Source of the DNA: a virus | Reading direction: 5' to 3' (one strand) | Virus record (IMG/VR): IMGVR_UViG_3300039412_000320 | Length of the DNA: 64,000 bases | Part shown: one piece after another, positions 2,076 to 51,483 of the stretch | How the letters are laid out: every line of letters starts with the position of its first letter | Numbering within the stretch: the first letter of the stretch is position 1 | The notes under the pieces: generated by a model | Databases searched by the model: none | The model's input: only the letters and a program-made list of their open reading frames with translations | What the model was told of the DNA's origin: nothing | Program-made: the position numbers and the translations under genes

Positions 2076-3116
2076 GTGGTAGCCCATATAGGAAGCTACC
2101 GTATCGTTGTAGATGACCCCGGAGACGCTAAATATATTACGGCATGGACGGAGGACAACAAATGTGTTGGCAAACTATCTACCAAACGACAGAGCGACAG
2201 TGGACCCCTGAACGACTATCTCGGGATTGCACTGGTGGAAGTGAAACCACGGCATCGGGGATACGGACTGGGCAAGGCGATGTACTTTGCCCTGATGCAG
2301 TTCATGAATCCGAAATGGAAGGGAATCAAGAGCTACCTCCCGGAGAGATACAATAAGAAGCGGGTTCCCAACATCTGGCGTAGACTGCAAGGCTACAAAC
2401 TTCCCGGAGAAGAAGACTGGATGGTTGCCGACCGGGATAAGGTTGCCAAGATAGCGTCAGGTCAGGACTCCCCGGACTGGGAAGAGGATGAGGATTCTCT
2501 CCTCACCAAGAAAGCTTGGCAGGATGAGCGCTTCTCCTATTGGGGATTGCAGTTCGCCGTTGACAAAGCGGAGGGGATCATTGCCGCCAATCCCCGGCCT
2601 ACGCAGAAGGCTCCCAAGGCATTTCTCAAAGCCTTTGTTGGCACCGTGGAAGATGACAAGGCTGAGGAAGAGGGTAGAATCAACCTCATGAATGTGGGCC
2701 TGAATAAGGAACACATGCAGACCGTTGATGCTGAGAAGCCCGGTATTGTTGCTCCCCTCATTTTCAAGCCGGACAAGACTCACTCCGAACCGCAGAAACA
2801 CTACATCCTCATTGACGGAAACCACCGGGCTAAGAAGCGCCTCCAAATGGGTCTGGACTTCATGGAAGTCTACCCCCTCACCCCCGAGGAAGCGTGGCAG
2901 TGCATGGCTCCGTACACCTTCCCCAACCTGTTGAAAATCTATGTTAACCCGACCAAAAAGGTGAGGAAGAAGGCGGAAGAGCAGCCCGCCAGACTCCTCT
3001 ATGTTGACGACATGCGCCGACCCACCGCTCCTGATGTTGATTGGGTCAGGAATTATGAAGAGTTCTTCCAGTACATGACGACGCATCCCATGCCCGAGGC
3101 TATTAGTTTTGGATAA
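2076..3116 (+). CDS. GNAT acetyltransferase - ParB/Srx-like nuclease domain fusion
   Basis: GNAT motif A VKPRHRGYGLGKAMYFAL. C-terminal ILIDGNHRAKKRLQMG resembles the ParB/sulfiredoxin DGxHR motif. Confidence 0.5.
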   Translation: MVAHIGSYRIVVDDPGDAKYITAWTEDNKCVGKLSTKRQSDSGPLNDYLGIALVEVKPRHRGYGLGKAMYFALMQFMNPKWKGIKSYLPERYNKKRVPNIWRRLQGYKLPGEEDWMVADRDKVAKIASGQDSPDWEEDEDSLLTKKAWQDERFSYWGLQFAVDKAEGIIAANPRPTQKAPKAFLKAFVGTVEDDKAEEEGRINLMNVGLNKEHMQTVDAEKPGIVAPLIFKPDKTHSEPQKHYILIDGNHRAKKRLQMGLDFMEVYPLTPEEAWQCMAPYTFPNLLKIYVNPTKKVRKKAEEQPARLLYVDDMRRPTAPDVDWVRNYEEFFQYMTTHPMPEAISFG

Positions 3117-3157: not shown

Positions 3158-3946
3158 ATGCGAATGACTATTAGAGGCAATTGCACCGTTTGTGGGGGGA
3201 ACTTCAAGCGTCGTTATGCTAAGAACTCCGTTCCTATTGTGAAGCTCTGTTCTAATAAGTGCAGAAGGGAGTGGCTACAAAAGGACAAGGTCAAAAAGGA
3301 GTGCATCGTTTGTAATAAGGTATTTTCCGTAAGCGCCTCAGTAGCTTATAGATATGTCACCTGTAGTATTGAATGCAAGCGTAAACATAAGGAGGGGGAT
3401 AAAAATGGAAACTGGCGAGGCGGTATAGCGGGAAATAGAAAGAAAGAGATTCGTTCCGGTAAGCTTCGTCGTTGGCGGAAAGCGGTCTTTGAAAGAGATG
3501 GACCCCACTGTGTCTTATGCGGGTCTAGTGATGGGTTAGAGGCTGACCGCATAAAGCCATGGTCTCTCTATCCAGAGTTTAGATATGAAGTAAGTAATGG
3601 ACGGATATTGTGCAAGATTTGTCATAACAAGCACACCAGAGAGTTAGCCGCCGAACGAAAGAGACTTGAGGCATTGGGGTATGTACGGATAACTTGTCCA
3701 CGAGAGTACGAGATTTTGGTTTGTCCCAGATGTGGGGTATCTTTCCTTAACAAGAGTGGTCAGAGTATCTATTGCGGAAAAAGGTGTCAAAGAGCGGAAG
3801 GACAGAAACGGTTAAGGGTAGCTAAAGCTGCCCGTGGGGAATGTAAGTGTTGTAGCAATCCAGTTGCCCCTAATTACAGTCGTTGTATTAGATGTCTCGA
3901 AAAGCAAAGAGTGGAGATGGCTGAATACAGAAAGCCTGATGTATGA
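3158..3946 (+). CDS. HNH endonuclease with multiple CxxC zinc fingers
   Basis: Many CxxC pairs. GPHCVLCGS..LEADRIKP..N..LCKICHNKH HNH core. Ends with ATGA overlap onto the next ORF. Confidence 0.55.
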   Translation: MRMTIRGNCTVCGGNFKRRYAKNSVPIVKLCSNKCRREWLQKDKVKKECIVCNKVFSVSASVAYRYVTCSIECKRKHKEGDKNGNWRGGIAGNRKKEIRSGKLRRWRKAVFERDGPHCVLCGSSDGLEADRIKPWSLYPEFRYEVSNGRILCKICHNKHTRELAAERKRLEALGYVRITCPREYEILVCPRCGVSFLNKSGQSIYCGKRCQRAEGQKRLRVAKAARGECKCCSNPVAPNYSRCIRCLEKQRVEMAEYRKPDV

Positions 3947-4664: not shown

Positions 4665-4701
4665 ATGAACTTTCTGAAGCACTTATAGGGGGAAAGTTCA
4701 T
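4665..4701 (+). promoter_or_regulatory. RBS/start-codon sequestering hairpin upstream of GIY-YIG gene
   Basis: Perfect 10-bp inverted repeat atgaactttc / gaaagttcat. The 3' arm contains the ATG at 4700 and follows the SD aggggga. Confidence 0.5.
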
Positions 4702-5407
4702 GTTTATCTATTTGATTGTAAATCATGAAACAGGAAAGTATTATGTCGGTCAACATACAGGTCATAATCTAAAGAAGTACCTTCAACAAAAATTTTCAGA
4801 TGCCAGACACGGACGAGGGGGAAATTCTCGTCTTTATAATTCCATGCGTAAACACCCCTTTCCTCATCTTTGGTCCATCCACGCCCTCCGTTCCGATATC
4901 CAAGCTAAAGCCGAGCTTGATGAGACCGAGCGGGACTTCATCAAGTTCCTTCGTGCTCAAGACCCTGAGTATGGCTACAATCTTTGTCGTGGAGGGGAGG
5001 GGTTTACCGGACTGCATTCTTCTCAAACTTGTGCTAAAATGAGTGAAGGGGTTAAACGAGCTTGGGCTAACCCCGAAAAAAGAGCCAAGCAATCGGCAAA
5101 TCTCAAAGCTGACTGGGCTAAACCTGAGTCTTTTTCTAATCGGGTTCAAGCGATTAGGGATTCATGGGCGGACCCTTATTCTCGTTCTAATCGTATGAAG
5201 GCTTTTGAAAATCTTGATTTTCACAGTAAAATGAGCACGGTTAATAAGAAAACATGGTCTGACCCAGAGAGAAGGAAAAAACAAGCAGCACTTCAAAGAG
5301 AGCGATGGACAAACCCCGAATACCGTGCCAAAATGAGTAATCTAGCTAAAAATCAAAGCCGAGGTACGGGACAGAAGTTTGTTGAAGCACTACCACTAGA
5401 CTCTTAA
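4700..5407 (+). CDS. GIY-YIG homing endonuclease with NUMOD3-like repeats
   Basis: MFIYLIVNHETGKYYVGQHTG (GIY..YVG), conserved R/E/N downstream. Repeated W(A/S/T)NPE..R.K motifs (NUMOD3-like). Paralogue of 38479-39327. Confidence 0.75.
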   Translation: MFIYLIVNHETGKYYVGQHTGHNLKKYLQQKFSDARHGRGGNSRLYNSMRKHPFPHLWSIHALRSDIQAKAELDETERDFIKFLRAQDPEYGYNLCRGGEGFTGLHSSQTCAKMSEGVKRAWANPEKRAKQSANLKADWAKPESFSNRVQAIRDSWADPYSRSNRMKAFENLDFHSKMSTVNKKTWSDPERRKKQAALQRERWTNPEYRAKMSNLAKNQSRGTGQKFVEALPLDS

Positions 5408-5423: not shown

Positions 5424-6848
5424 ATGGAAGAGCTTATCTACAAGACGGCGGGAGTTTGGGATAACCTTGACCGGGGATTCCTTGAGAAGATACACAACCA
5501 TGCCCCCGGAGTGGTTGTGGGTCATCTCAGTACTTTACTTAGGAATCAACGACTTAGGGAAATATATGAGAAAGTACTTGAAACCCCCATCAAGACCTTC
5601 AATAAACCGGAAGAGGTGGAGTTGGAGGGTGGTTCCCCCTTAAAGTGGCAAGGTGGATACGGGGTTTCCCACGGTGGTTCGATGATATTTATCAACCCCG
5701 CCATCAGCACCACCAACATTGTCAAAACTCTGTTTGAGGAAGGCGCTCACGCTATTTGGGCAGCGGAGGGGCGACCATCTAAACCGTTTGACCCCGCTCA
5801 TCCCCCCACCGAGAAAGAATATCTCTCTGACCCCGAAGAGCTTTTTGCCAAGCGTATGGCAGACCGTGCTTTCGCTATAGCTACGGGAGGGATAAAGACT
5901 GCCGCTTGGGCAGAGGCAACCGACTTCTCTTCCGACCCCCAGTGGCACGACGTGTTCTACGGAAATCCCTCGCCAGAGCGCATAAAGGCCCTTGCCAGCT
6001 TCCTTCGCTCCGACCCCAACCGCTTCATTACCCTTTATCACGGTACCGCCTCTGATTTGCCAGTGATGGAGGAGGGGTTGCTTCCGACCAGTCCCAGCAG
6101 GGCTAAATCGTATCAATCCAGTCCCGGTTACGTGTATCTCTCCGTATATCCGGGGAACGCCAAGAACTTTGGAGAACTGGCTTACCCCGGAGAGGATATC
6201 ACTGTCTACGCTGTCAATGTCACCGCCCGGCGATTACTGCCGGATACTGACCAGCTTGCCAATCAGCGGTCAGTGGGTAAGGAAGTGGGGAACAGCCTCG
6301 CTGAAAGCTTGGCAATCGGACATGGGGCACGAGTAAAGGGAGCAGTAGGTCCGATGCAGCTTTACAAGGCTGCCGCTAAAAAGTTGCGACTCCCCCCCGA
6401 CATCATAGACGGTACACGAAGCTTTCTGTGGGCTATCGTGAATGACCGGGTGATTTTTTCCTTGGAGATTGAACCCCACGTTATCTGGTTTAAACGAGTT
6501 GGACTTTCCGATTCCGGCCCGGCGTTCGACCGTATCCCCCGAGGGAGAATCTGGGTTCAATCGGCCCGTGATGAGGTCGTAATTTTTACCGAGGCAGGAA
6601 GTGGTGGTATCACGGGGCAGGCGGATTTCACCTTCGCCCCGGAGCATGTTGTAAAGGCTATGTTGCAGACCTTCCCTCAGCTTCGAGACTTTAACATCGT
6701 TGACGATATCCCTTCAAATCTTGTGGTAACCTCCTCTGTACATAAAAGAGGGGGAAGTCTCGCATCTAAGACAGCCCACATTTTATTGGCCGGAATAGGA
6801 GAAGATGACCGTGCGTACCTGAAATGGGATAGCAAACAAGCTAAGTAG
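5424..6848 (+). CDS. Multidomain protein: KptA/Tpt1-like LYHGTAS domain plus the ~90-aa GPxFDRIPRG module (paralogue of parts of the 2025-aa protein)
   Basis: ITLYHGTASDLPVMEEGL..YVYLSVYPGNAKNFG..DITVYAVNV matches E. coli KptA FLYHGTASRFLDEIKKQGL..YVHLSADEATARKVG..VILTVKA. N-terminal LSTLLRNQ vs KptA LSFVLRHK. SGPAFDRIPRG..FAPEHVV..FPQLRDFNIVDD module. Confidence 0.55.
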   Translation: MEELIYKTAGVWDNLDRGFLEKIHNHAPGVVVGHLSTLLRNQRLREIYEKVLETPIKTFNKPEEVELEGGSPLKWQGGYGVSHGGSMIFINPAISTTNIVKTLFEEGAHAIWAAEGRPSKPFDPAHPPTEKEYLSDPEELFAKRMADRAFAIATGGIKTAAWAEATDFSSDPQWHDVFYGNPSPERIKALASFLRSDPNRFITLYHGTASDLPVMEEGLLPTSPSRAKSYQSSPGYVYLSVYPGNAKNFGELAYPGEDITVYAVNVTARRLLPDTDQLANQRSVGKEVGNSLAESLAIGHGARVKGAVGPMQLYKAAAKKLRLPPDIIDGTRSFLWAIVNDRVIFSLEIEPHVIWFKRVGLSDSGPAFDRIPRGRIWVQSARDEVVIFTEAGSGGITGQADFTFAPEHVVKAMLQTFPQLRDFNIVDDIPSNLVVTSSVHKRGGSLASKTAHILLAGIGEDDRAYLKWDSKQAK

Positions 6849-6856
6849 AGAGGGGG

Positions 6857-9800
6857 GTGACCCCGACGAGGATACGTCCGACCCCGAAAAGGTTACAGAC
6901 TATGCCTGATAATCTAACCATATACCCAGTTACTCCCGAGTGGGTTTCAAAGGCGAAGGTGTTCTTAGCCGAGAAGTGGAAAGAGCGTGCCCAAGAGTTA
7001 GGTAAATCCAACCCTACGGATATGTCGGGTGCCTGCAAATTTATCTCTCTGTTCGGAAAGACGATTTTCGGGCTTGACATTCAAGGAAACTGGGGGCATC
7101 AGTACAACATCACTCCAGATGGTAAGCCTCTCGACCTTGCTGAGGGGTTTTCGGGAGAGGTTAGTTATCTTCACGATAGTGAATTTTTCAATAACCCCAA
7201 GCATAGGGAATCAATGGCGTCTTGTATGCCGAGGGTGAGGAGATGGGCTGAGGAGTTTATCCAGAGGTATCCCTTATTGGATAAAACGGCGTCCACACAG
7301 ACAAGGTGGTCTCATCCCCTGTTGAATGGGCTTAAGGCGGAAACACGCAAGGCTCCTACCTTCGAGGACTTCAAGCATGACTTCTCCATAGACATTAAGC
7401 ATGGACTGTATTTCCATGTCACCGACAACCCCAACTTCACTATCGACCCGGCGAAGGGTCCTCGGGATATGTCCAGCATGGGAGGCGGGACACCTGTGCC
7501 GGGAAAGTTGATGGTTACTTCTCACTTGGAGAATTGGACGGATTACTACGAAAGCGACCGGGCGTATGTCGCCGTCATTGACATGTCGGAAGTGCCGAGG
7601 GAATCCTACCATCAGGTAAGCCGGGGATTCGGCAATGAGTTTTGGGTGGAGAACCCGCAGGCGGTTAAGGTAGCGGCGGTCATGCCAGTTAAAGAGGCTA
7701 TCAAGCTGGACCGCACATATCAGAACGTTCTGGACCTTCACTCTGATGAAGACCTGTTGGAGTTCTATAACCAGTTCCACGCCCCAGCAGAACCCGAGTG
7801 GAAGCCGCCCAAGGAGCAGGGTAAACTTCCCTTCCGGGGTAAGGGCATTCCCGTAGTCGCTTATGAGCCTTGCGATTTTGAGTTACTGTGGGCAACTTGG
7901 CATAACAAAGTGCTGTTGACCGATGACATGGGTCTCTGGCATGTTAAATGGTTTCAAGAACTCAATCAGCATTCTCAACGGCATGACCCCATTCCTTCAT
8001 GGGGACCGGAGTTTGATAAAGTTCCTCGGGGAAGGGCGGAAGTCAATAAGAAGAAGAAGCGAGTCCGGCTGTACACCGATGCCGCACCCAAGGGGTCAAG
8101 AGCAGGTGAATCCATTACAGGAGAGGTTGACTTTGACTTTACCCCCGAGGAAGTAGTAGCCAAGATAAAGCAGAAGTATCCCTCACTCCGGGACTTTGAG
8201 TTTGTAGATGAGGTTGCTCCTCGGATAATGGGCAAATGGGCAGCCGATGAGTTTGAATACCCTCAGATTGCCTACCATGTCAGCCGTCGCCGTAGCCGGA
8301 ACTCCATTCTAAAAAATGGATTGCAGATGTACCACAAGCAGCAGTATGAGGATGTGGAGCACGAGCCAGCGGTGTATTTGTTCGGTAGCCTCACTGATGC
8401 CGAGAACTGGGTAGGTGAGCAGCAGCCCTACACAGGACAAGCTTGTGACATCTGGGAAGTGAAAGTCCCACAAGGGGAAGGAACGTTTTGGCCGGACTTC
8501 GAGGTTCGGCACGAATACCCCACGGCGTGGAAGTATCTCTGGGATATTCCTCCACAAAATATCAAGCTCATCAAGACTATATCGCTCCCCAAGCAGGCGG
8601 CTCTACCCACTGGAAAAGCCATAGATGACCTCGGGATATCCGGTCAGCAGGGATGGTCATATGACGAGCCGTTCCCGGACCGGCATAATGATTTCTACGA
8701 GGACGACCAAGTTCAGAATCCCCACAATGAGCACCCCCTGACCGCCTCTCTATCCCCGGCCTACACCGAGGAAGTAAAGAAACTGGAATACGAGCACGAG
8801 CTTATCTCCTTGGCGGAGGAGATGGGGAACTTCGAGCGGGTGGTGTGGGAGCGCCAGCCGGTCCTCAAGACTCACATGTTGGACACCGTGGGCTTGGCAG
8901 GCTCCGCAAACGACTACCCACATCTACGGGCCGTCCATGTGGGTGACCCCGACTATTGGTTCAGTCGGCTGACAGAAGATTACAGCCGTGACTCCAAGGC
9001 GTGGGTGGTGGAGATATATCCCACCGAAGATGACTATCTGTGTGATGATGTGCAGTATGCCATGGACCCTAGCGGTGGAGACAAAGCATATAGCGCCATT
9101 CTCATCACTCCTCGCACTCAGTTGGTGGAGGGTAAGGATTTCCGGTACGTGAAGGAATTGACGGAGGAAGACCTCCCCGAAGTCTATGATGAAGATGACG
9201 GGTTTGGTTTCAAGGACGCTGCTATTAAAAAGACAGTCATCATGTGGGTTCGTCATGAGGGAAAGCTTTACACCACCGTACAGGTTGGGGGCAAGAGCCA
9301 TGCCCAGTGGTTGGAAGAACTGAGCCTACCGTTCTCCGGTCCTTCCTACGACCGAATAGAACGAGGGGTAGCGATTGTAGACCGAGGGCACAGAGTCGTT
9401 CACCTCGTCAAGAACGCCGGGGGATACACGCCCAATGACGTAGTGGAATACATCAAGAATCGGTACAATCTGAAGGAGTTTATATTCGTTGATACGGAAA
9501 GCTCCGACACGGGTATTGTAGCCTTCAAAAAAGTTGCCAGTGACGATGCTTACTACGATGCGGCAGAGGCGTTCTTTGACCGGGAGAGCGTGGTAGCCGT
9601 AGAAGTAATCACCGAATACATGCAGCACGTCCGCCAGAAGAGGTATCGTCAGCAGTGGAATGTCGTGCCCGCCGCCCGGCTCATCAAAATTTGGGAAGAC
9701 TACATGAAGACGGGGTTTGTCCGGGACTCAGCGGGTCTTAATCAGATAGCGGAAACCGTCATTGACAACTGCTTTAAGATTTACGTCAATTCCATCCTCT

Positions 9801-12800
9801 GCGGTCATAGTGCGATGGGGCCAGAAGAGTATGCTTTGGAGATGCTGGAAAGGGAAGGTATATCCAAGAAATTCCCGGAGGACTACTTTAAGAGGGCACC
9901 AGACTACTTTGATACCCCGGAAGGCGGCTGGAGGATAAGTGACCAAGCTGAGGGGCGTTTGATGAATCTCGTGCAAGGGGTGTACCTTGCCAAGAGTGAT
10001 GAAGACAAGTTACAAGCGCTTGATAAGGTCTTGCAGTTTTCCCACCCCCGCAGCGACCTGTCAAGCTGGCTGGTGCAAGGCGGAAGGACCACCTTGAATC
10101 GGCTCTTCACCGGCATGAATGAATATGAGCGGTGGGAGCAATACGGCGGCGTGGAGGAGGCAAAAGAGTTAAACAAGGAGTTCAATAAGGGTAGGAATGC
10201 CCCCCTTATTCCCAAGGAGGCGTGGAGCACGGAGCCGGGCGGAGAGCCGCTCAAGCCCGAGACTCAATCCACTATCGCTGAGATGGTAGCGGATATACGC
10301 AAGATATACCCTGAGTGCCAGCGCATCTCCTTGGCAGGCTCCGCCGCTCGTGACGAACTCAAACCCAAGTCTGACATTGATGTGGTCATTGATTTCCCCA
10401 AGGGCACTCCCGCATGGGATATGGTGGAAAGAGACCAACCACTTTGGGACAAGTACCAACAGGTGGAAGGTCGGATGGTGGACTTCATCATCCATGTAAA
10501 AGGTGGACCGCACGCCGGGCAGTATGATTACCGGGAGGAGTTGGGTCTCCCCAATCCCATGAAAACTTTGTGGGAGGCTACAACCAAGACCGCTTCCTTC
10601 TCCGTTGAAGGTGAGGGATGGCTGACCCCCGATGGTCGTTTCCTCCCCAACGCTTTCGGTGAAAAGCACGAAGACAGCGCCCTGCGCCTCGGGTTTTTAA
10701 CCAAGGAAGAAGCCAAGAAGATAAAGAACGACACCCAGCGGAAAGAGCAGGTCATTGCCAAGGGGAACATTCGGGTTGGATTCTCTAACACCGGCAACAC
10801 CATCTTCTTTGAGTCAAAGACTCTTGATGCCGATACCAAGAACCTGATAGGTATGGGCTTGGAGAATCTGCCGAGAGGCGTTCGTAAGGTCTCAGTTTCA
10901 ACCCAAGATGAGATGTATTACCTGTGGACTTTGCAAGAAGCTCAAGAGGTTTTTTGGGGTAATGAGCCGATGCCCCAAAACATGGCCTACCTGAGCGTGG
11001 CTTCCAAGACCGCCGCTCTCCCCGGCCTCGGACTCCTCCAGCCTGGACACGGGGATGATTCCAGTGCGTTTGACCCCGGCTATTACATGACCGAGGGGTG
11101 CGGTATATTTGCTGTGGATGCTGATTACCGGTACTGGGGGAAGGACGTGATTCAACCCCTGATGACCGCTAAGACTGCCAAGACCGCCTCGGAATGGGGA
11201 GGTTTCTGTCCCCGTTGTGGTTCGGACCAGACAGCGTGGGCGATGCACTCTGCGACCACTGACACCTATTTCTGCATGGATTGCAAGGGCAGCACCGACA
11301 TTGAACGGGACATGCACCCCGACTTACGGTCGGCTATGAAGATAGCTGGATTGGTAGGATACCCGTGGGCGATATGGGAGGGCAAGGTTCTCCTTAGCCC
11401 GAGGGGAATGGCACACACCGACTGGTTCTCTCGTATGGGAATCCCCGACCGAGGACCGGAGTTTGACCGCATCCCAAGGGGCAACTTTTACATTGACAAA
11501 GCTAAGAGGCAAATCTACGTCTGGACGGATGCCGAGACTTATGACTACTCTAAGAACCCCTCAGAAGAGAGCCTAGACGATACGGTGGTTTTTGGTCCAT
11601 GGGGAGGAAGGAGATTCGACCTTGAATTTACTCCTCCCGAGGTGATAGAAGCCATCAAGCGAAAGTACCCCTACACCGAAGCTTATGAGGTGGTTGACTG
11701 GATGCCGCCCGGCTCCGTTCACAAGTGGAGTTCCGGCGAGTGGTGGAGGCGTTGGCGCAAGACCTATCTTATCTCCAAGGGTACCATCCTCTACCACGGC
11801 ACAACGGAAGATTTCCCGGCAATGGACATCCAAACCCCGGCATGGTTTAGCACCTCTGAATCTGTTGCCGAGTACTTTAAGGCGTGGCATGGCGGCGAGG
11901 AGGGCGAGCAACGCATTCTCAAATTCCAAGTCACCAAGCCTATCCGTCTCCCAAGGATAGATGGTTCGGAAGACCTTGAAAGACTCGCTGATATGTTCAA
12001 CTTCCCCAGCCCGCTAAGTGGGCATGATTATGTGGAAGACCTTGCCCAAGTCCTCCCCGGCTGGATTATCCCCCACAACTACCCGGACGGCGATGATATC
12101 CTGCTCGTCAGTGACCGGGACATCATACCCATCAATGAGCCGGAAGAGGAAGAAGAGGAAATCTCGCAGGAGGGTTTGCCCCCCGGAGCTTGGAGGAACA
12201 ACTCTGGTCTCCCCGGCTATTGGACTCGTGAGGGTACCACCACCATTTACCACATGACACCCGAGGAGATAGCGGAGCGGGAACAGAGGTTGCAGAAGCG
12301 GTCAGCGGCGGAGCCGGTCAAGGCTGAGGAGGCGACGTGGAGCCGTCCGCTCTACCACGGCACCTCGGCTTACCGGGCGAAGAAAATAAAGGCCCAGAAG
12401 AGCTTCTACGGTGAGACCGAGGGCTACAACGAGATGGGGGTGGGGGTCTATACCCACCCGTCCATGAACCGCACCAGCCCATGGGCAGCGGGCCGGGCGC
12501 AGGGAGCTTTCATGGAGCTTCATTTCACCCGTCCTCTAAAGTTGGCAGTGAAGAATCCGCAAGGCGAGTGGGTATCCTCCATGGGAGGAGAAAGTCATCG
12601 GTTTATTAGCAAGGCACCGACGCAGAGAGAACTCGTTGACGCCGGATACGATGGTATCTACGATAAGCACGGCACTACGCAGGTTCCCCACCAAGTGCTT
12701 CTGTTCAATCAGCCGGTGCTGGGGTCGGGCGGGGCACACAAACTCAATCAACTGATTGACTGGGACAAGGTCCGCATTATCAACTTCAACGAGTCCCAGC

Positions 12801-12934
12801 ATGGTTACCTCAAGGGGTTGGAGAACACCGAAGAAGCACCCCATTACCGGGGAGCTTCTCAAATGACCGCCGCCGATGACCGGCCCATGCCCAAGGAGTT
12901 TGTCACCACCAAGAACCTCAAGACTAACATTTAG
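6857..12934 (+). CDS. Giant polyvalent protein (2025 aa): transglutaminase-like Cys protease, 3 KptA/Tpt1-like domains, 3 copies of the GPxFDRIPRG module, MNT nucleotidyltransferase, zinc ribbon
   Basis: Uninterrupted 6 kb ORF with GTG start after SD agagggggg. GACKFISLF..GHQYNITPDGKPLD (C-H-D TGase-like). GSAARDELKPKSDIDVVIDFP (GS..DxD MNT). CPRCGSD..FCMDCKG. IAYHVS, ILYHGTT and PLYHGTS domains. Confidence 0.7.
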   Translation: MTPTRIRPTPKRLQTMPDNLTIYPVTPEWVSKAKVFLAEKWKERAQELGKSNPTDMSGACKFISLFGKTIFGLDIQGNWGHQYNITPDGKPLDLAEGFSGEVSYLHDSEFFNNPKHRESMASCMPRVRRWAEEFIQRYPLLDKTASTQTRWSHPLLNGLKAETRKAPTFEDFKHDFSIDIKHGLYFHVTDNPNFTIDPAKGPRDMSSMGGGTPVPGKLMVTSHLENWTDYYESDRAYVAVIDMSEVPRESYHQVSRGFGNEFWVENPQAVKVAAVMPVKEAIKLDRTYQNVLDLHSDEDLLEFYNQFHAPAEPEWKPPKEQGKLPFRGKGIPVVAYEPCDFELLWATWHNKVLLTDDMGLWHVKWFQELNQHSQRHDPIPSWGPEFDKVPRGRAEVNKKKKRVRLYTDAAPKGSRAGESITGEVDFDFTPEEVVAKIKQKYPSLRDFEFVDEVAPRIMGKWAADEFEYPQIAYHVSRRRSRNSILKNGLQMYHKQQYEDVEHEPAVYLFGSLTDAENWVGEQQPYTGQACDIWEVKVPQGEGTFWPDFEVRHEYPTAWKYLWDIPPQNIKLIKTISLPKQAALPTGKAIDDLGISGQQGWSYDEPFPDRHNDFYEDDQVQNPHNEHPLTASLSPAYTEEVKKLEYEHELISLAEEMGNFERVVWERQPVLKTHMLDTVGLAGSANDYPHLRAVHVGDPDYWFSRLTEDYSRDSKAWVVEIYPTEDDYLCDDVQYAMDPSGGDKAYSAILITPRTQLVEGKDFRYVKELTEEDLPEVYDEDDGFGFKDAAIKKTVIMWVRHEGKLYTTVQVGGKSHAQWLEELSLPFSGPSYDRIERGVAIVDRGHRVVHLVKNAGGYTPNDVVEYIKNRYNLKEFIFVDTESSDTGIVAFKKVASDDAYYDAAEAFFDRESVVAVEVITEYMQHVRQKRYRQQWNVVPAARLIKIWEDYMKTGFVRDSAGLNQIAETVIDNCFKIYVNSILCGHSAMGPEEYALEMLEREGISKKFPEDYFKRAPDYFDTPEGGWRISDQAEGRLMNLVQGVYLAKSDEDKLQALDKVLQFSHPRSDLSSWLVQGGRTTLNRLFTGMNEYERWEQYGGVEEAKELNKEFNKGRNAPLIPKEAWSTEPGGEPLKPETQSTIAEMVADIRKIYPECQRISLAGSAARDELKPKSDIDVVIDFPKGTPAWDMVERDQPLWDKYQQVEGRMVDFIIHVKGGPHAGQYDYREELGLPNPMKTLWEATTKTASFSVEGEGWLTPDGRFLPNAFGEKHEDSALRLGFLTKEEAKKIKNDTQRKEQVIAKGNIRVGFSNTGNTIFFESKTLDADTKNLIGMGLENLPRGVRKVSVSTQDEMYYLWTLQEAQEVFWGNEPMPQNMAYLSVASKTAALPGLGLLQPGHGDDSSAFDPGYYMTEGCGIFAVDADYRYWGKDVIQPLMTAKTAKTASEWGGFCPRCGSDQTAWAMHSATTDTYFCMDCKGSTDIERDMHPDLRSAMKIAGLVGYPWAIWEGKVLLSPRGMAHTDWFSRMGIPDRGPEFDRIPRGNFYIDKAKRQIYVWTDAETYDYSKNPSEESLDDTVVFGPWGGRRFDLEFTPPEVIEAIKRKYPYTEAYEVVDWMPPGSVHKWSSGEWWRRWRKTYLISKGTILYHGTTEDFPAMDIQTPAWFSTSESVAEYFKAWHGGEEGEQRILKFQVTKPIRLPRIDGSEDLERLADMFNFPSPLSGHDYVEDLAQVLPGWIIPHNYPDGDDILLVSDRDIIPINEPEEEEEEISQEGLPPGAWRNNSGLPGYWTREGTTTIYHMTPEEIAEREQRLQKRSAAEPVKAEEATWSRPLYHGTSAYRAKKIKAQKSFYGETEGYNEMGVGVYTHPSMNRTSPWAAGRAQGAFMELHFTRPLKLAVKNPQGEWVSSMGGESHRFISKAPTQRELVDAGYDGIYDKHGTTQVPHQVLLFNQPVLGSGGAHKLNQLIDWDKVRIINFNESQHGYLKGLENTEEAPHYRGASQMTAADDRPMPKEFVTTKNLKTNI

Positions 12935-17356: not shown

Positions 17357-19843
17357 TTAGCTGGTAGCAGCTTTGGTAGCAGAGGCTTCCTCGTTAACAG
17401 CAACATCTTCGGCGACCAGTACACCCTCGGCAACACGGGTGAAACTAAGGTCTTCGTTGTCTTTATCCACTACGATGAGGTCTCCCATGTTGACTTGTTT
17501 GGTGTTAAGAAAACGGGAAAGCCGCTTCACTACCAGCTTCTCTATTATCCGCTTGAGAGGACGTGCCCCGTTCTTTAAGTCCGTGCCTTGGGTTATCAGC
17601 AGGTCTTTGGCGGCGGGGGTGAACTCCAAGACAAACTGCCGGAGGTCTCGCATCTTTAACACCCGGCTCTGCACCTGTTCGATTTCCAGTTCCACCACCT
17701 GTTTGAGTTGCTTCTTATCCAAGGAGTGAAACACCACTATCTCATCTATGCGGTTGAGGAACTCCGGGGTGAAGCGTTTCTTGGCGGCTTCCAGTCCTGC
17801 TGTCTCCACTTCTTTGTTGAACTCCTCACTGCTCTTTGTGGAAGACCCGGCAAACCCCAATCCACCTCGGGCGAGATATTGCATTTCTCGGGAGCCGAGA
17901 TTTCCCGTCATGATGATGAGGCATTTATCGAAGGTGCTTTGCTTGTTGTCACCCAAGGTAAGTGTGCCTTTGTCAAGTATTCCAAGTAACAAGTTCCACA
18001 GGGCGTCGTTAGATTTCTCAAACTCGTCAAAGAGTAAAAGTGTCAATTTTAACTCTTCGGTGTGGTGGGCATCCAGACTTTCCTGACGTAAGTAGGCTGG
18101 TGTATCCCGGTGTCCTAGATAACCCGGAGGAGAGTTATGTACTTGAAAACAAACCATATAGTATGATTTATCTTTTATGGATAAATCGTACACCATCCCC
18201 TTGTACAGTTCTCGTTCAATCTTTTTTATTCGGGTGTAGATATAGTCATCATCCACATAAGACATACGTTGAATTCCCGAATTTCCCAAGTTTAGAAGGT
18301 TGAGGCTTTTCCCGACTATGCGGAGGTTACTGGCAAACTGTGCTATTTGGTCTCCGGCTACGTATAGCCGGTAACGAGTGGATGCCTTATACCCCCGCTT
18401 ATCCTTCGGGTGTTGCTCCTGCATTTGGACTGCGTACCCCAAGTTATGAAGGAGGAATTGTATCTGGAAAGCCAAAGTTTCGGAGCTTGTGGCGTAGTCA
18501 ATGCGGCGGCAAACAGTCTTCCCCCCATCCCCCAAGATTGCCGTATCTAAAAAGTCGTAGGCTAGTTCTGGGCGTAAGTCGGAGACCCACGCTGGAAAAC
18601 GCTTGCGAAGAGCATGGTCACCAAAAAGGTCAGTCATCATAAGACTTATGGGTCGAGAGGAAAGGTATATCCGATAACTGCTCTTTCGCTCTTTCACCCT
18701 TATGTGAACGTCCCCAAACACCCTGTATATAAGCTCTCTCACCTCTTGAATGCACGGGCTGTCCTGCCCGTGTTTTCCGAATGTAAAATTGATGGATTTC
18801 TTGCTTTTGGAGTTTCCACCTTCGCTAACGTAAAATCCGGCCAAGCGCATAAAATCAGAGCTTACAGGTATAAAGCGGGGGAGCTTTTTTTTCGTCGCCG
18901 TTGACCAGATGTCTTTGTTATCAGACTTAAATCTGGGAAGGCCCCTAGTATATTCGGCTAAGTCGAGGGTTACGTCTTGGAGGGAAGATTTATGGCGAGG
19001 GTATACCACTACATCCCCCGCTTTAAGGTCTCCCGCCGCTATATCTTTAAGATTATTCGGTGAGCAAAACGTGCTGAGGAGCCGTCCCCTCTTTGTCGTC
19101 GCCCGGTTTTTCGTGCATGGGTCCTGAATGGCCCTTATTTCATGCCAAGGAGTGCATCCCACGGGTATGTTGGTGTTTCCAGCCGTTAGTTTTACTATTT
19201 CTCCGGCATATTCGTGGCTATGGGTTTCAATAACAGGGTGCGGTTCCCCATTTTCCCCACTTATGCTAGCGTTTTTTTCGACTTTTTCTATAGGTAGAAC
19301 AGTGCCTCCGGGAAACATCACCCGTGTTCCCGTAATGAAACACCCCACCAATTTGGAAATCTCGTGAGAGTGTTGAAATTCTGCACAATCAACTTTTTTG
19401 AGAGCCTTTTTGGTGCCGAAGAGAAGCTCCGCCATTACTTCAATGATGTAGGTCTTCCCGCAACCGGTGGGACCGAGGAATATTAGATTTCCGACAGGAT
19501 GGTCAGGCGGGGCTAAACCAGCACGGAAGGTTTCGTATGCGTCTACGAGTACCTCAATTGCCCGTGTCTGTCCGACGATAAGATGCTTTAGGCTGCTGGC
19601 AAGTTCTTCCTCAGCCTCGCTCTTGATGTTAGGGTCAAGCCGTTTGCACTGCTTTTTAGGCATTCTTGGCACTGCTTCTCGTCTAAGCATCAGGGTAATT
19701 TCCGGTTCCTCATTACATGATAAGTTCCGTAGTTCGTTTCCTATTTGATGCGTAAAATGCACGGGGTGCGCCCATACTGAAACGCACCCCGTTGACTTGC
19801 GGCAGAGAGAAGGGTGCTTTCTTCCTTTCCCTTCAGTTATCAA
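17357..19843 (-). CDS. Clp-family AAA+ ATPase (ClpA/B/C D2-like) interrupted by an intein; true start possibly the internal Met near 19690
   Basis: Walker A GPTGCGKT. SKLVG[intein]SPPGYLG corresponds to the conserved ClpB SKLIGAPPGYVGY. LLLFDEFEK, GARPLKRII ClpB-like C-terminus. Confidence 0.8.
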   Translation of the reverse strand: MITEGKGRKHPSLCRKSTGCVSVWAHPVHFTHQIGNELRNLSCNEEPEITLMLRREAVPRMPKKQCKRLDPNIKSEAEEELASSLKHLIVGQTRAIEVLVDAYETFRAGLAPPDHPVGNLIFLGPTGCGKTYIIEVMAELLFGTKKALKKVDCAEFQHSHEISKLVGCFITGTRVMFPGGTVLPIEKVEKNASISGENGEPHPVIETHSHEYAGEIVKLTAGNTNIPVGCTPWHEIRAIQDPCTKNRATTKRGRLLSTFCSPNNLKDIAAGDLKAGDVVVYPRHKSSLQDVTLDLAEYTRGLPRFKSDNKDIWSTATKKKLPRFIPVSSDFMRLAGFYVSEGGNSKSKKSINFTFGKHGQDSPCIQEVRELIYRVFGDVHIRVKERKSSYRIYLSSRPISLMMTDLFGDHALRKRFPAWVSDLRPELAYDFLDTAILGDGGKTVCRRIDYATSSETLAFQIQFLLHNLGYAVQMQEQHPKDKRGYKASTRYRLYVAGDQIAQFASNLRIVGKSLNLLNLGNSGIQRMSYVDDDYIYTRIKKIERELYKGMVYDLSIKDKSYYMVCFQVHNSPPGYLGHRDTPAYLRQESLDAHHTEELKLTLLLFDEFEKSNDALWNLLLGILDKGTLTLGDNKQSTFDKCLIIMTGNLGSREMQYLARGGLGFAGSSTKSSEEFNKEVETAGLEAAKKRFTPEFLNRIDEIVVFHSLDKKQLKQVVELEIEQVQSRVLKMRDLRQFVLEFTPAAKDLLITQGTDLKNGARPLKRIIEKLVVKRLSRFLNTKQVNMGDLIVVDKDNEDLSFTRVAEGVLVAEDVAVNEEASATKAATS
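18134..19342 (-). mobile_element. Intein (403 aa) with LAGLIDADG homing endonuclease inside the GAPPGYVG motif of the Clp ATPase
   Basis: Starts CFITG (Cys1) directly after LVG, ends VHN followed by S (+1 Ser). Internal LAGFYVSEGG and LDTAILGDGG LAGLIDADG motifs. Confidence 0.8.
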
Positions 19844-21370: not shown

Positions 21371-23584
21371 CTATGAACTCAGTAGTTGCCAGCTTAGGAA
21401 CGCCCCGGTAGTGACGGTAATGCCGTTCAAGTTTGCTCCATACAGATTGATGACGTATCCCGCCATGGTCGGAGTCACGTCGTTGGTGTGGGTCTCCGAG
21501 TAAACCTGCTGCCAATCGAGATTCGTCGGGTCAGTGCTGTACCAGTAAGTCCGGGTGCTGCTGTTGTCATGAATCTTCATCCAGAAAAGTGGCGGGAAGA
21601 TGTACATGGAAGTTGCAACATTGTGGGAGAAGGCGCTGGTAGTGGTGTAGTAGTCTATTTCCAATACCGGCACAGCGTTGTTTCCCTTGCCGATGTCAAA
21701 CGTCTTGAATTTCGTCCCGTCCGACAAAGCAATACCCTCCCACCAATTGCCGTTGTAAATGGTACTGGTGCTGTACATGAACATGGGGGGTTTGATGATG
21801 AGAGCCGCAATGACCGTCCAAGGAGTGACCGGGAGGTTTACACCATAGAAGTGGATGTTGTCCGCCCCGTTACCTGTGGCACTGAGTGCCAGCATGTTAT
21901 TCTGGGCTATCAGCGTGGACGTTCCTTGGTTGACCCAAAAGAAGCTGGAGGTGGTCGGCGGGGTGAGGCCAGAAAACGGGTAGGTGCTGCCGCTAGATGG
22001 CCCAGTGTAGCCGGTATATCCAGTAATGTTCGGCCCTGTGTAACCCGTATACCCCGTCGCACCTGTGGAAGACGCCGAACCGGGCGGGCCAGTATCTCCA
22101 GTATAGCCGGAATACCCCGTATACCCCGTAAAATTCCCCGGCCCGGTATAGCCCGTATAACCAGTTGTTCCAGCGCCCGTGTAACCGGTGTAGCCGGTGA
22201 ACGCTCCCGGCCCGGTTGGGCCGGTGTATCCAGTGTAACCGGTGAAATTGCCCGGACCCGTATATCCGGTGAACCCGCTATAGCCGGTATACCCGCTGGG
22301 TCCCGTGTAGCCTGTGGGTCCCTGTGCTCCCACGGGCAGCACGGAGCAGATGACCGAGGCATAGTAGGCGGTGGCGGCAGGGTCTTGGGTATTGAAGTTC
22401 GCCACGATGGGTGCCACGGGGATGCTTGCCGACGATGCGTAGCCGAGGCAGAACTGCTGCCCGTCAAACCCCGAGCCGCCACTGAAGGTGATGGTGTTGG
22501 TGTAGGGAGAGCTAAGGGGAGGGGTATTGAACGAGAATGCGTAGGAGACCGCCGCCCTGTTGCAGCAGAACGAGCCGAAGACCGTGGCGGCGGTATTGAT
22601 GCTGATGGTGGAGGACGTGAGCGTGCCTGCACCGTTGTTAATCGTGGCTATGCCGCTGGCGAAGACGAGCGAGGGCGTACCGGCGACCTCCACCACGCTC
22701 CAATACATATTGCCGTTGTTGACGCCGACGCTTCCTGCCCACGTCTCGCCATCACCGCCGATCACCGTCCTTGACCACACGGTGACGACGATGTCCGAGC
22801 CGGACGAGTAGGAAGTCTGCTGCGTCAAGCCTGCCGGTGGGGTGACCGTCCCCCCGTAGTAGTTGCCCTCAAGGAAGAAGAGGAGCGTGTTCCCGGCTAC
22901 CGGCGTGGTAGCCAAGGTGATGGTGAACGAGGTGGAGTTGGACTTGACAGCCTGCGCCTGCACCACGGCTGGAGGCGTGGCAGAGAGGTATCCCGTATAA
23001 CCGGTAAAGCCCGTGTAGCCTGTGAACCCACTGTATCCCGTGTACCCAGAGTAACCTGTGAAGTTACCCGGCCCGGTATAGCCAGTGTACCCGCTCGGGC
23101 CGGAATATCCGGTGTACCCTGTAAACCCAGTAAAGTTGCCGGGGCCGGTATACCCCGTGTAGCCACTTGCTCCCGTGTAACCCGTATACCCAGTGAACCC
23201 TGTGAAGTTACCGGGGCCGGTATAGCCCGTGAACCCGGTGTAGCCGGTCGGCCCAGAATACCCTGTATAACCCGTAAAATTGCCGGGGCCAGTGTAGCCG
23301 GTATACCCAGTTGGCCCAGTCGCTCCCGAGGAACCCATCTGAACTTGGGAGTAGGTGCCCGGCGACCCCACGGTGACCAACTGCCAGAAGGTCTGGTCGG
23401 AGCGGACGTACACCATCATGCCGACTTCTTGACGAAGCTGGGGGATAGCGTCACGGGCGGTGTAGTCGTCTACCTCACGCCATCCCCCGAGGCCGTAGAT
23501 AGCCTCGTGCGTCGGGAAGGTGTCGGCGTCGGTGAACGGGACAACCTGCGCAGCTACGTTTACTCCTGTGAGTGGTGTCGGCAT
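21371..23584 (-). CDS. Tail fibre protein with collagen-like G-X-Y repeats
   Basis: Two blocks of GYTGYTGPGNFTGYTGYSGPTGYTGFTG triplet repeats. Ser/Thr/Asn-rich beta-type C-terminus. Strong SD upstream. Confidence 0.7.
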   Translation of the reverse strand: MPTPLTGVNVAAQVVPFTDADTFPTHEAIYGLGGWREVDDYTARDAIPQLRQEVGMMVYVRSDQTFWQLVTVGSPGTYSQVQMGSSGATGPTGYTGYTGPGNFTGYTGYSGPTGYTGFTGYTGPGNFTGFTGYTGYTGASGYTGYTGPGNFTGFTGYTGYSGPSGYTGYTGPGNFTGYSGYTGYSGFTGYTGFTGYTGYLSATPPAVVQAQAVKSNSTSFTITLATTPVAGNTLLFFLEGNYYGGTVTPPAGLTQQTSYSSGSDIVVTVWSRTVIGGDGETWAGSVGVNNGNMYWSVVEVAGTPSLVFASGIATINNGAGTLTSSTISINTAATVFGSFCCNRAAVSYAFSFNTPPLSSPYTNTITFSGGSGFDGQQFCLGYASSASIPVAPIVANFNTQDPAATAYYASVICSVLPVGAQGPTGYTGPSGYTGYSGFTGYTGPGNFTGYTGYTGPTGPGAFTGYTGYTGAGTTGYTGYTGPGNFTGYTGYSGYTGDTGPPGSASSTGATGYTGYTGPNITGYTGYTGPSSGSTYPFSGLTPPTTSSFFWVNQGTSTLIAQNNMLALSATGNGADNIHFYGVNLPVTPWTVIAALIIKPPMFMYSTSTIYNGNWWEGIALSDGTKFKTFDIGKGNNAVPVLEIDYYTTTSAFSHNVATSMYIFPPLFWMKIHDNSSTRTYWYSTDPTNLDWQQVYSETHTNDVTPTMAGYVINLYGANLNGITVTTGAFLSWQLLSS

Positions 23585-38478: not shown

Positions 38479-39327
38479 ATGTTCATTTATCTTATCGTTA
38501 ATCATAAGACCGGCAAATATTATGTCGGTCAGCATAAGGGAAACAATCTTAGAAAGTATCTTCAAACCAAGTTATCCGCTGCTCGGCATCAGCACAATGG
38601 AAGTTCTCACCTTTTCAATGCAATGAGAAAATATCCACAGTCTTCTCTCTGGTCTATTTACGCCCTACGTTCCGATATCCAGAATAAAACAGAGCTTGAC
38701 CAGACCGAAAGAGACTTTATTAAGTTCCTGCGGTCGCAGGACCCTGAGTGTGGGTACAACATATGCCGGGGAGGAGAGGGATTTACAGGGCCGCATTCTG
38801 AGGAATGGAAGCAAAATCAAAGCAAAATGAAAATGGCTTGGCACAGAGACCCTAGAAATTCTGAAACTAAAAGACTTTCTAATATAAAAATTAGTGAAAC
38901 CAAGAAATTAAATAGTAGACCAAAGATAAACAAGGTCTGTCCGGTGTGTGGTAAATCATTTTCTGTTTCATTTGGAAGGAAAGAAAAAATATACTGTTCA
39001 CATTTGTGTTATTCTAAACAACCAAAAAACGAAGAAAGTGAAATAAAAAGGTTAAAAAGTCTTCGTAGAGCTATTCAATCCCCACAATGTTATACTAATA
39101 GGTCAAATGCACAACTCCTTAGACGCAAAAGAGAGAAAGAACAAGGCATTAAACCTGTGATGCCCATCCGTATATTAATGCCAAAAAGGATAAAAAGACC
39201 ATACCTTTTAACTCCTAAACATTTGGAAGCTTCAAAGAACCTAGGTAAAAGTAACTTAGGAAACCATCAACGTTGGCATATAAATCGAGGAATTTCAGTT
39301 TTAAGATGCCAACATTGTCAAATATGA
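38479..39327 (+). CDS. GIY-YIG homing endonuclease (paralogue of 4700-5407)
   Basis: MFIYLIVNHKTGKYYVGQHKG. Shares its upstream 40 nt, including aaatgaactttc, with the 4700 copy. Confidence 0.75.
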   Translation: MFIYLIVNHKTGKYYVGQHKGNNLRKYLQTKLSAARHQHNGSSHLFNAMRKYPQSSLWSIYALRSDIQNKTELDQTERDFIKFLRSQDPECGYNICRGGEGFTGPHSEEWKQNQSKMKMAWHRDPRNSETKRLSNIKISETKKLNSRPKINKVCPVCGKSFSVSFGRKEKIYCSHLCYSKQPKNEESEIKRLKSLRRAIQSPQCYTNRSNAQLLRRKREKEQGIKPVMPIRILMPKRIKRPYLLTPKHLEASKNLGKSNLGNHQRWHINRGISVLRCQHCQI

Positions 39328-40110: not shown

Positions 40111-41031
40111 ATGGAACAATTCAAAAAAAGTGCCACAGCAGAGACTATATATTCCACTGGAGCACAACGAGACAGTCGTATAGGCAAGGGAGCATTTCAC
40201 TGGATGCCCTGGACAGCCGTTAAGATGGTTTCTCGCATCTATGAAATAGGTAACAAACAACGAGACCTTCTCTCAGGTGGAACAGGTAATGGAGACACCC
40301 GTAATTGGGAGAACGGGATGAAGATTGCGGATTTGCTTGATAGCGCTATAAGGCATATAACCGCTCATTTAGAGGGTGACAGAAGTGAACCCCATCTTTC
40401 ACAAGCTATGTGGAACCTGCTTAACGCCCTACAAACATCTATATGGGTATACACCGGACAGAGGCCCCCAGAACTTAATAATCTCCCCGACCATATCCAC
40501 CCTTGGAAGCCGGGAAATCCGTCTCCATGTCCGCTTAGTTCTCAAGAGATAGAGTGGCTAGAAACCTGGGGAATACAAAGGAACGAGTTTCCAGACCTTA
40601 ATGACCCCGTACAAAGTGCTTCTCATCTCGCTGCCCTCGTAGATGGAGAAGGGACCATTTCAATCGTAAAAAGGGAAACAAAGCGCCGGGAGGCTTACCG
40701 TCTATCCATAAGGGTCTATAATACTTCAGAAACCCTCAAAAATTACCTTGAGAAAAGATGGGGAGCGACTACGGTTAGAAGAAAAGGGCGAAGGAAAATC
40801 CACAAGGACTGCTATACGATGATATGGACGAGTTCAAAAGCTGAAGATATTCTTCGTAGGATATGGCCGTACTTAATCATCAAGACCGCCCAAGCAAACT
40901 TGGCAGTGGCTTTTCAAACTTTGGTAAAAAACATCAATCCTGGATGCAAAGGAATACCAGAAAAAACTCTGCAACAACTGCGGTTTATGAAGGAGGAGAT
41001 AAATCGTATGAACGAAAAAGGACCCAAGTAA
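40111..41031 (+). CDS. Fusion of a nucleotide pyrophosphohydrolase-like N-domain with a LAGLIDADG endonuclease domain
   Basis: N-terminal GAQRDSRIGKGAFHWMPW..AIRHITAHLEGDRSEPHLSQAMWNLLNAL resembles the dATP/dGTP diphosphohydrolase N-terminal domain. C-terminal LAALVDGEGTIS LAGLIDADG motif. Confidence 0.45.
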   Translation: MEQFKKSATAETIYSTGAQRDSRIGKGAFHWMPWTAVKMVSRIYEIGNKQRDLLSGGTGNGDTRNWENGMKIADLLDSAIRHITAHLEGDRSEPHLSQAMWNLLNALQTSIWVYTGQRPPELNNLPDHIHPWKPGNPSPCPLSSQEIEWLETWGIQRNEFPDLNDPVQSASHLAALVDGEGTISIVKRETKRREAYRLSIRVYNTSETLKNYLEKRWGATTVRRKGRRKIHKDCYTMIWTSSKAEDILRRIWPYLIIKTAQANLAVAFQTLVKNINPGCKGIPEKTLQQLRFMKEEINRMNEKGPK

Positions 41032-51446: not shown

Positions 51447-51483
51447 AAGTTTACGGGCTGTAGCTGAACGGCCTAACTTGTGC

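Follow-up and report, generated by a model that had tools for sequence, protein, structure and literature searches.

Variable effector cassettes within large polypeptides that are cut into pieces are flanked by pre-toxin (PT) or demarcation modules in polymorphic toxins, and by cleavage sites in MARTX toxins. Among phage proteins, the polyvalent proteins are regarded as the earliest weapons of the phage to reach the inside of a cell; as a class, they unite domains of unlike biochemical function in a single chain, are encoded by phages, plasmids or conjugative elements, have a domain for virion association or DNA piggyback (MuF, portal, ArdC-N and similar) or a link to head genes, and travel in the virion to be injected together with the DNA. 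Iyer, Burroughs, Anand, de Souza & Aravind (2017, PMC5512222) described the large polyvalent protein-associated domains LPD1–LPD40 and found a zincin-like metallopeptidase (MPTase) domain in 36% of polyvalent proteins, where it is common but not obligatory. We analyzed a 64,000-nt stretch of DNA from an uncultured jumbo phage (IMG/VR record IMGVR_UViG_3300039412_000320, hereafter the window), in which two adjoining + strand open reading frames (ORFs), p1 (5424..6848, 474 aa) and p2 (6857..12934, 2025 aa from GTG 6857), carry one and three copies, respectively, of the same module. Polyvalent-type phage proteins being already known, what is new here is the recurrent domain together with a conserved linker motif, KTA.

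The module resembles the LPDs in being an uncharacterized globular domain of phage multi-effector proteins that is shuffled among ADP-ribosyltransferase (ART), GNAT, nucleotidyltransferase (NTase) and peptidase domains, and in occurring also as solo genes, as reported for some LPDs (PMC5512222). It differs from them in matching no LPD model in Pfam (50 copies compared at E ≤ 10, the comparison covering the LPDs that Pfam holds). It is also unlikely to have been part of the 2017 LPD dataset, since the ten members whose source was checked are all metagenomic (ENA, JGI/IMG, Logan and SRC, on contigs of up to 413 kb) and none comes from NCBI or UniRef. Like MuF, the virion anchor of phage-type polyvalent proteins, the module could be a non-enzymatic domain tying effectors to a common structure; unlike MuF, to which it has no relation in sequence or fold, it is present in up to four copies per protein and on its own. 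The likeness to PT modules and MARTX sites lies in recurrent non-catalytic modules or short linker motifs placed around variable effectors. Those systems, by contrast, belong to bacterial secretion and show no homology, whereas here we deal with phage proteins and candidate cut sites of the KTA type. As for KptA/Tpt1 and ART-PolyVal, the module does not belong to the ARTs; ART-PolyVal domains do occur in relatives of p1 and p2, but none of the domains flanking the module in the window is significant against the Pfam ART and KptA models or an iterated profile. That the proteins are phage-encoded, as in the polyvalent class, is indicated by the near-identity of the window to part of a 338-kb contig, by the window's genes for a collagen-like tail fibre, many HNH and GIY-YIG homing endonucleases and an intein-bearing ClpB-like ATPase, and by IMG/VR relatives of 237–317 kb.

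One module in four copies

An earlier note on this DNA had proposed that a module of about 90 residues is repeated four times across the two proteins. The repetition is borne out: hidden Markov models (HMMs) built from three copies and run against the six-frame translation of the window each recovered the fourth copy (E 6.5e-22, 8.9e-25, 4.8e-8 and 1.2e-20 for copies 1 to 4), the next match within the 64-kb window appearing only at E > 1, and BLASTP aligned the copies pairwise with E values from 1e-5 to 9e-21. The HMM made from all four copies, run against all six frames of the entire window, marked exactly these four sites and none other below E = 0.6. The motif GP-x-[FY]-D-[RK]-[IV]-x-RG is found at aa 365 of p1 and at aa 383, 828 and 1533 of p2 (nt 6516, 8003, 9338 and 11453), and these sites and their frame are those of the earlier note. 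Its starts, on the other hand, have to be moved: in an alignment of the four segments, similarity begins 30–35 residues upstream of the GP motif, at the conserved Trp that the earlier note mentions, followed by H-x2-W-F, which adds two strands and the H..WF helix to the domain. Nor is the size a uniform 90 residues; it ranges from 93 to 121 aa because the insert that precedes the FTPEEV helix varies between 0 and ~30 residues. The core of the full module reads H-x2-W-F-x3-G-L-P-x2-G-x2-F-D-x-I-x-R-G.

With these boundaries, all on the + strand, copy 1 spans 6417..6722 (p1 aa 332–433), copy 2 spans 7877..8227 (p2 aa 341–457), copy 3 spans 9233..9511 (p2 aa 793–885) and copy 4 spans 11354..11716 (p2 aa 1500–1620). 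In copy 2, the stretch from the H..WF helix to the GP motif contains an additional loop; copy 3 is the shortest form, without insert, and copy 4 the longest, with an insert of ~30 aa. The copies are 26–39% identical to one another but 45–92% identical to copies in the proteins of other phages (proteins are designated below by P numbers and contigs by L numbers): the nearest relatives of copy 1 are in P0006 (73%) and P0005 (54%), that of copy 2 in P0014 (50%), those of copy 3 in P0018 and P0008 (45%), and those of copy 4 in P0004 (92%), P0002 (59%) and P0009 (56%). Each copy being nearer to the copies of other phages than to its own paralogues, we are dealing with four old, separately maintained paralogues. 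A recent tandem duplication was considered as their origin and rejected on the same ground.

Distribution, partners and predicted fold of the family

As the earlier note had surmised, the domain has not been described before: no consistent match came from Pfam, PHROGs, NCBIfam, PADLOC or the PDB. A Pfam-A scan of whole p1 and p2 placed no match on the module at E ≤ 1, and when 50 module sequences were compared with Pfam one by one at E ≤ 10, no family, LPD, SH3-like and KOW models included, was matched by more than one sequence. A match to a characterized Pfam family, which the earlier note had singled out as decisive against novelty, was thus looked for and not found. PHROGs, NCBIfam and PADLOC gave scattered single-member matches to the module (E ≥ 0.002), and PHROGs returned nothing for p1 and p2 at E ≤ 0.001. 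A 50-copy profile retrieved nothing below E = 0.29 from PDB sequences, and Foldseek gave 0 matches at E ≤ 0.001 in the PDB and in BFVD. Likenesses noted by eye to SAP or helix-hairpin-helix domains, to GIY-YIG hairpins, to KilA-N/Bro-N and to WWE found no supporting match in any search and serve as leads at most; a full-text literature search turned up no description of the module, nor is it mentioned in related papers that were checked. Judging from these comparisons, the module constitutes a family absent from the domain and structure catalogues searched, possibly with a new fold, and it appears to occur in phage metagenomes only.

The earlier note had suggested searching phage and metagenome proteins with a module profile. 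Word-index protein search is almost blind to the family (1–2 matches), and we therefore scanned 1.84 billion cluster representatives exhaustively with HMMER; this returned 68 proteins at E ≤ 1e-3, 18 of which were at E ≤ 1e-10. Local iteration gave 91 copies in 70 proteins, with one to four copies per protein: four in P0007, three in P0010 and P0013, and two, frequently in tandem, in several others. The copies are N-terminal, internal or C-terminal, dispersed or tandem (P0008, P0015, P0016, P0017, P0025 and L001). Complete solo module genes of 109–141 aa also occur, within phage-like contigs; on the solo-gene contig L013, a flanking gene has two domains in common with the module-bearing protein P0028. 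One solo gene adjoins a Peptidase_S78 prohead-protease gene, and the gene for P0007 adjoins Trypsin_2 and Peptidase_S49 genes.

IMG/VR contributed a pair of relatives, jumbo-phage contigs 317 and 237 kb in length, while GenBank phages and PLSDB plasmids gave no match by megablast of the locus or by tblastn of the modules. The only matches among 185,579 representative bacterial genomes (GTDB), two short ones to Bryobacterales, were dismissed as chance, as they fail the family HMM (E 0.011 over 15 residues). On L001, a related 9-kb contig, frameshift-broken tandem modules lie beside ART-PolyVal, GNAT and cREC (cyclic-phosphate processing receiver) genes; at 6915–7631 of this contig, two tandem copies are spread over three reading frames, in either an error-ridden assembly or a decaying gene.

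The earlier note had also placed the module in effector-type proteins, and the relatives agree with it, pairing the module with ART-PolyVal, GNAT, SET, kinase, SprT-like and other domains. Among the 68 proteins, ART-PolyVal and GNAT are each found six times and PI3/PI4-kinase-like, SprT-like and NTP_transf_2 domains twice each, with single cases of InPase, ADPrib_exo_Tox, SET, ParB_N, DNA ligase, 2'-5' RNA ligase, Acb1 and helicase domains. This set of partners is the repertoire of polyvalent proteins (Iyer et al. 2017, PMC5512222). The MuF, portal and ArdC-N families are not among the 25 most frequent of the 27 Pfam families matched in these proteins. True ART-PolyVal domains in relatives of p1 and p2 are those of P0002, P0009, P0030 and P0061, of genes on L001 and of the second ORF of L002. 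SprT-like domains come close to the module in P0011, which has the order module–SprT–module, and in the case of P0027, whose gene is located after a small SprT-like gene. The module has no fixed neighbor: as mapped with phmmer, the domain that follows copy 4 in p2 stands after a module in P0004, P0009 and P0029, before it in P0002, and 240 residues away from it in P0030.

The AlphaFold2 model of copy 1, whose calculation the earlier note had advised, is a confident alpha/beta structure, calculated from an alignment of the four copies only: mean predicted local distance difference test (pLDDT) score 83.2, predicted template modelling score (pTM) 0.77, and pLDDT ≥ 90 at 56 of 99 residues. In the model, two strands are followed by a helix (H..WF), a short helix (GP.FD), two more strands, the disordered insert, a pair of helices (FTPEEV...KYP) and a final strand (F.VVD), which gives the topology b-b-a-a-b-b, variable insert, a-a-b. 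The four helices of this alpha/beta topology are not those of an SH3 or KOW barrel, and the differences in length between the copies are located in the disordered insert.

Conservation was counted over 86 aligned copies of the wider family (fewer at some positions). G42 is present in 86/86 copies and H20 in 85/86; D37 and R41 follow with 81/86 each, G33 with 80/83, P30 with 77/86, W23 with 76/86, G28 with 70/86 and F24 with 69/86, and the Trp near the start, W2, is kept in 73/74. The best-kept positions are thus mostly aromatic, Gly or Pro, with H, D and R in addition, and the H, D and R-G residues are nearly invariant across phages that share only 20–30% identity in the module. Some copies (P0025, P0041, P0051 and P0057) have D or R substituted. 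Besides D37, the 86-copy alignment has no acidic or nucleophilic position (Ser, Cys, Thr or Glu) that is kept family-wide. The C-terminal half is far less conserved; in the subfamily of P0007, P0010 and P0013 it is swapped for a WY.[ND]TGT.EEF motif, which leaves a core of ~45–65 residues. The charge of the module is acidic to neutral, with a median isoelectric point (pI) of 6.4 and a median net charge of -1 (-5 to 0 for the window copies).

KTA linkers and the proposed role of the module

KTA occurs eight times in p1 and p2 against 0.6 expected (the maximum in 2000 shuffles was 4). For the 70 proteins of the family, 69 occurrences were counted where 12.8 would be expected, and their context is [AS]-[SGA]-K-T-A-[ASG]. 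K[TQS]A is found ≤25 residues upstream of 13 of 62 modules (21%), compared with a background of 4.4% for any 25-residue window. Within the window, KTA is restricted to the proteins of the effector island to which p1 and p2 belong (three in p1, five in p2 and two, at aa 140 and 402, in ORF 495–2063); neither the ClpB-like, tail-fibre and vault-like proteins nor the other large ones contain it. The sites located, all on the + strand, include p1 aa 158–160 (5895..5903) and aa 449–451 (6768..6776), the latter 16 residues beyond copy 1, and p2 aa 143–145 (7283..7291), aa 1244–1246 (10586..10594), aa 1384–1386 (11006..11014) and a double KTAKTA upstream of copy 4 (11171..11188); a KQA variant lies at p2 aa 579–581 (8591..8599). 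Assemblin-type protease sites have a small P1 residue, as KTA does. KTA recurs where domains seem to meet, and it may be a conserved inter-domain linker and a candidate protease site.

Pieces that are delimited by K[TQ]A and hold at most one module each are p1 158–449 and p2 143–579, 579–1244 and 1442–end; some other pieces hold no module at all. The stricter rule of exactly one module per KTA piece was considered and abandoned: in p1 and p2 the count is 'at most one', and the module-free pieces, as well as tandem copies elsewhere, contradict it. In other lineages, other strings recur near modules, namely LS[ML]RKKA and GGPGSGR / (K/A)WDTRGR (P0007, P0010, P0013 at L016 8001–17792, P0015, P0045, P0054 and P0055), and these look like lineage-specific counterparts of the KTA punctuation.

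We favor, with a probability of roughly 0.4, the reading that the module folds autonomously and is a recognition domain, probably without catalytic activity, that would act as a handle on individual effector pieces. This reading is preferred because the module is freely shuffled, occurs in tandem and solo, has a small core and no detectable catalytic fold, and is joined to partners of unrelated chemistry (ART-PolyVal, GNAT, SET, PI3/PI4-kinase-like, SprT-like, NTase, InPase, ligases and Acb1). The module would thus be a common handle in polyvalent multi-effector phage proteins, and its nearly invariant putative face (the His at the start of helix 1, the Trp-Phe pair, the GLPxxG turn and FD-x-I-x-RG) would bind a single partner or ligand that is itself conserved. 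The likeliest candidates would be a host macromolecule of high conservation and a nucleotide-like ligand; general DNA binding seems less likely, being weakened by the acidic to neutral charge. The KTA linkers would be the probable sites of protease processing that release the effector pieces, and, since no KTA-delimited piece of p1 or p2 holds more than one module, each piece set free would carry one handle at most. Smaller phages would encode this handle on its own, in a small gene among the clustered effector genes. Given that MuF, portal and ArdC-N are missing from the listed families, another domain would need to supply contacts with the partner or the virion.

Several points weigh against a recognition handle. 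The near-invariance of H, D and R-G is also what would be expected of a small enzyme, Iyer et al. (PMC5512222) regard polyvalent-protein domains so conserved as potentially enzymatic, and true enzymes (ART, MPTase) are likewise repeated within polyvalent proteins. The slightly acidic charge opposes plain DNA binding yet indicates no alternative. Some KTA pieces, including the ART-PolyVal piece of the sister contigs described below, are module-free, and P0008 has tandem copies with no KTA between them, so that 'one handle per piece' is no rule. Packaging of the module proteins into the virion, finally, is assumed by analogy.

A possibility that we consider unlikely though worth keeping in mind is a small enzyme that founds a family of its own, its His/Asp/Arg catalytic center acting on a host or signalling molecule (a nucleic acid, a nucleotide second messenger or an ADP-ribose derivative) and repeated as ART and metallopeptidase domains are. 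In addition to the near-invariance of H, D, R and G over the 86 copies, H20, where helix 1 starts, should lie at the same end of the domain as D37 and R41, where helix 2 ends and strand 3 starts, to judge from the predicted helix-turn-helix; enzymes dominate polyvalent proteins, in which repeated enzyme copies are known; solo genes occur; and the module is found once alongside Acb1 and alongside a 2'-5' RNA ligase-type domain. However, the core that one subfamily retains is, on the alignment, small for an enzyme, tandem copies are frequent and no likeness to any catalytic fold was detected. Moreover, the family keeps no second acidic or nucleophilic residue, and D or R is replaced in the four proteins listed above. 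A handle that binds a component of the capsid, portal or inner body, and thereby packages and ejects effector pieces in the role of MuF, is distinctly improbable in our view. It would be consistent with the lack of MuF, portal and ArdC-N among the listed families, with the ceiling of one module per KTA-delimited piece in the window and with the protease genes beside a solo gene (Peptidase_S78) and beside P0007 (Trypsin_2 and Peptidase_S49). But an interface with a fast-evolving virion partner should co-vary, and the invariance of H...D...RG at 20–30% identity is easier to reconcile with a universal ligand or partner than with a virion protein that co-evolves; in addition, solo modules have no cargo, several pieces, the ART-PolyVal piece included, have no module, and the effector island was not seen beside head genes in the window.

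We give still less credence to a processing or folding element, be it a self-cleaving domain or a docking site for a protease, either of which would part the effector domains, or an intramolecular, ligand-free folding nucleus or spacer. The location of the module between effector domains, the link with SprT-like zincin peptidases (P0011 and P0027) and the peptidase processing of polyvalent proteins predicted by Iyer et al. speak for such an element. However, the Ser, Thr, Cys or Asn that known autoproteolytic modules need is not conserved, the candidate cleavage sites are the KTA-type linkers, which lie outside the module, a pure separator is hard to square with solo genes and terminal positions, and strongly conserved surface-type polar residues are unexpected in a spacer. 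A bolder idea, to which we assign little probability, is a module of new fold whose H/D/RG face would bind or process a molecule common to all bacteria, be it a nucleotide immune signal, a conserved hub like RNA polymerase or another of this kind, acting both as a solo anti-defense or takeover protein and as the shared targeting or activation handle of all the pieces that cleavage at KTA would release from giant phage polyproteins. If true, it would amount to a modular, so far undescribed 'cut-and-deliver' grammar of phage multi-effector proteins.

Returning to the recognition handle, a module that binds a conserved host target or ligand would represent a new takeover or anti-defense interaction; a module that is an enzyme would represent a new family, perhaps on a new fold. 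The module and the KTA-type linker are two concrete handles on the organization of effector domains, and in either case the module profile can find effector islands in huge uncultured phages, where current annotation yields nothing for the module.

Flanking domains, locus variants and other genes of the window

The protein p1 consists of an N-terminal domain without assigned function, a 'YHGT' domain (aa 175–331), copy 1 and a short tail. The p2 protein is a polyvalent-type multidomain protein with copies 2–4, whose start is ambiguous: GTG 6857 sits just after a G-rich stretch with almost no spacing, and ATG 6902 is the start in gene calls on identical contigs and in the homologue P0030. The sole Pfam domain over its cut-off in either protein is NTP_transf_2 (PF01909; E 8.4e-6, 26.5 bits versus a cut-off of 21), which corresponds to a Pol-beta-type nucleotidyltransferase motif region at 10298..10426 (+; p2 aa 1148–1190). 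About eight further globular segments of p1 and p2 have no Pfam assignment; homologues of these segments occur in proteins with ART-PolyVal, GNAT, PARP-like and NTase domains. Immediately upstream of copy 4, the KTAKTA linker is followed by a weak zinc-ribbon-like segment (11171..11302, +; p2 aa 1439–1482), with E values of 0.09–0.5 for the zinc ribbon, below the cut-off. The Pfam scan of p1 and p2 revealed no MuF, portal, ArdC-N or similar family for virion association or DNA piggyback, and no MPTase or SprT-like match (SprT-like domains being found in 2 of the 68 relatives and in one neighboring gene). No head genes were recognized beside the effector island within the window.

The statement in the earlier note that the modules lie next to KptA-like domains found no support. 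KptA/Tpt1, an RNA 2'-phosphotransferase, is marked by the NAD+ lobe of the ART fold and by conserved HGT and R..VHL motifs, and ART-PolyVal by an H-Y-D active site; p1 and p2 have no match to Tpt1/KptA (PF01885) or any other ART family of Pfam at E ≤ 1, and the flanking domains have none to PDB sequences at E ≤ 1. Their likeness to KptA comes down to a YH[GV][TS] strand seen by eye; several domains of the window begin with a YHGT-type strand, as ARTs do. By eye, the nearest to KptA is the 'YHVS..SILKNGL' domain that follows copy 2 (8219..8590, +; p2 aa 455–578), which had no Pfam match at E ≤ 1, no PDB match and a probability of 0.4% in an hhalign comparison with ART-PolyVal; a homologue search with p2 aa 455–610 retrieved nothing. 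The 'YHGT...WFSTS' domain that follows copy 4 (11729..12226, +; p2 aa 1625–1790) recurs in P0004, P0009, P0029, P0030 and P0002. It reached 43% probability in hhalign to ART-PolyVal, over the YHGT strand alone, the others reaching 8% or less, and an iterated ART-PolyVal (PF18760) profile recruited no domain of the window. A two-domain AlphaFold model of module 4 and the following domain had a pLDDT of 47 and was not used.

The exact p1 protein is present on at least 21 metagenomic contigs, the longest of 338,351 bp. By blastn, the window is 99.97% identical to the latter contig (L002) save for 2620 nt that are missing from the window: at the junction, a 7-nt microhomology, GCTGTGG (11111..11117, +), marks the place where four sister contigs carry 2620 further bases (L002 15695–18314). 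There, this region is divided between two overlapping ORFs, 1546 and 1345 aa long, which the loss of the 2620 nt has fused in frame into p2 in the window; the long-form giant ORFs overlap by 26 nt in different frames (L002 16094–16119). The only clear ART-PolyVal domain of the phage lies within the piece that the window lacks. Natural variation and an artefact of assembly could each account for this difference. In the 317- and 237-kb IMG/VR relatives (L006/L007 9005–18085 and L008/L009 8138–12844), p1 and the first part of the p2-like protein make up one ORF of 3027 aa that holds three modules, and the fourth module is in the next ORF, of 1569 aa. Gene boundaries within the effector set are fluid.

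Just upstream in the window, at 2076–3116 (+), a GNAT domain is fused to a cREC domain, and cREC also adjoins modules in L001 (5566–5877); this hints at a theme of NAD/ADP-ribose or RNA-end processing in the island. Free-standing HNH and GIY-YIG homing endonuclease genes are very dense in the window (3158–3946, 4700–5407, 38479–39327, 40111–41031, 51480–52193 and 54468–55265), and two of them lie inside the effector island, directly upstream of p1. A ClpB/Clp-type AAA+ ATPase at 17357–19843 (-) is split by an intein with a LAGLIDADG homing endonuclease. On the same strand, a collagen-repeat tail-fibre-like protein of 737 aa is encoded at 21371–23584 (-), 8 kb downstream of the effector island and opposite to it in orientation. 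Finally, the 810-aa protein encoded at 30761–33193 (-) matches the shoulder domain of the Major Vault Protein (E 8e-22) as well as a vault repeat (E 2e-10), which is unusual in a phage genome.

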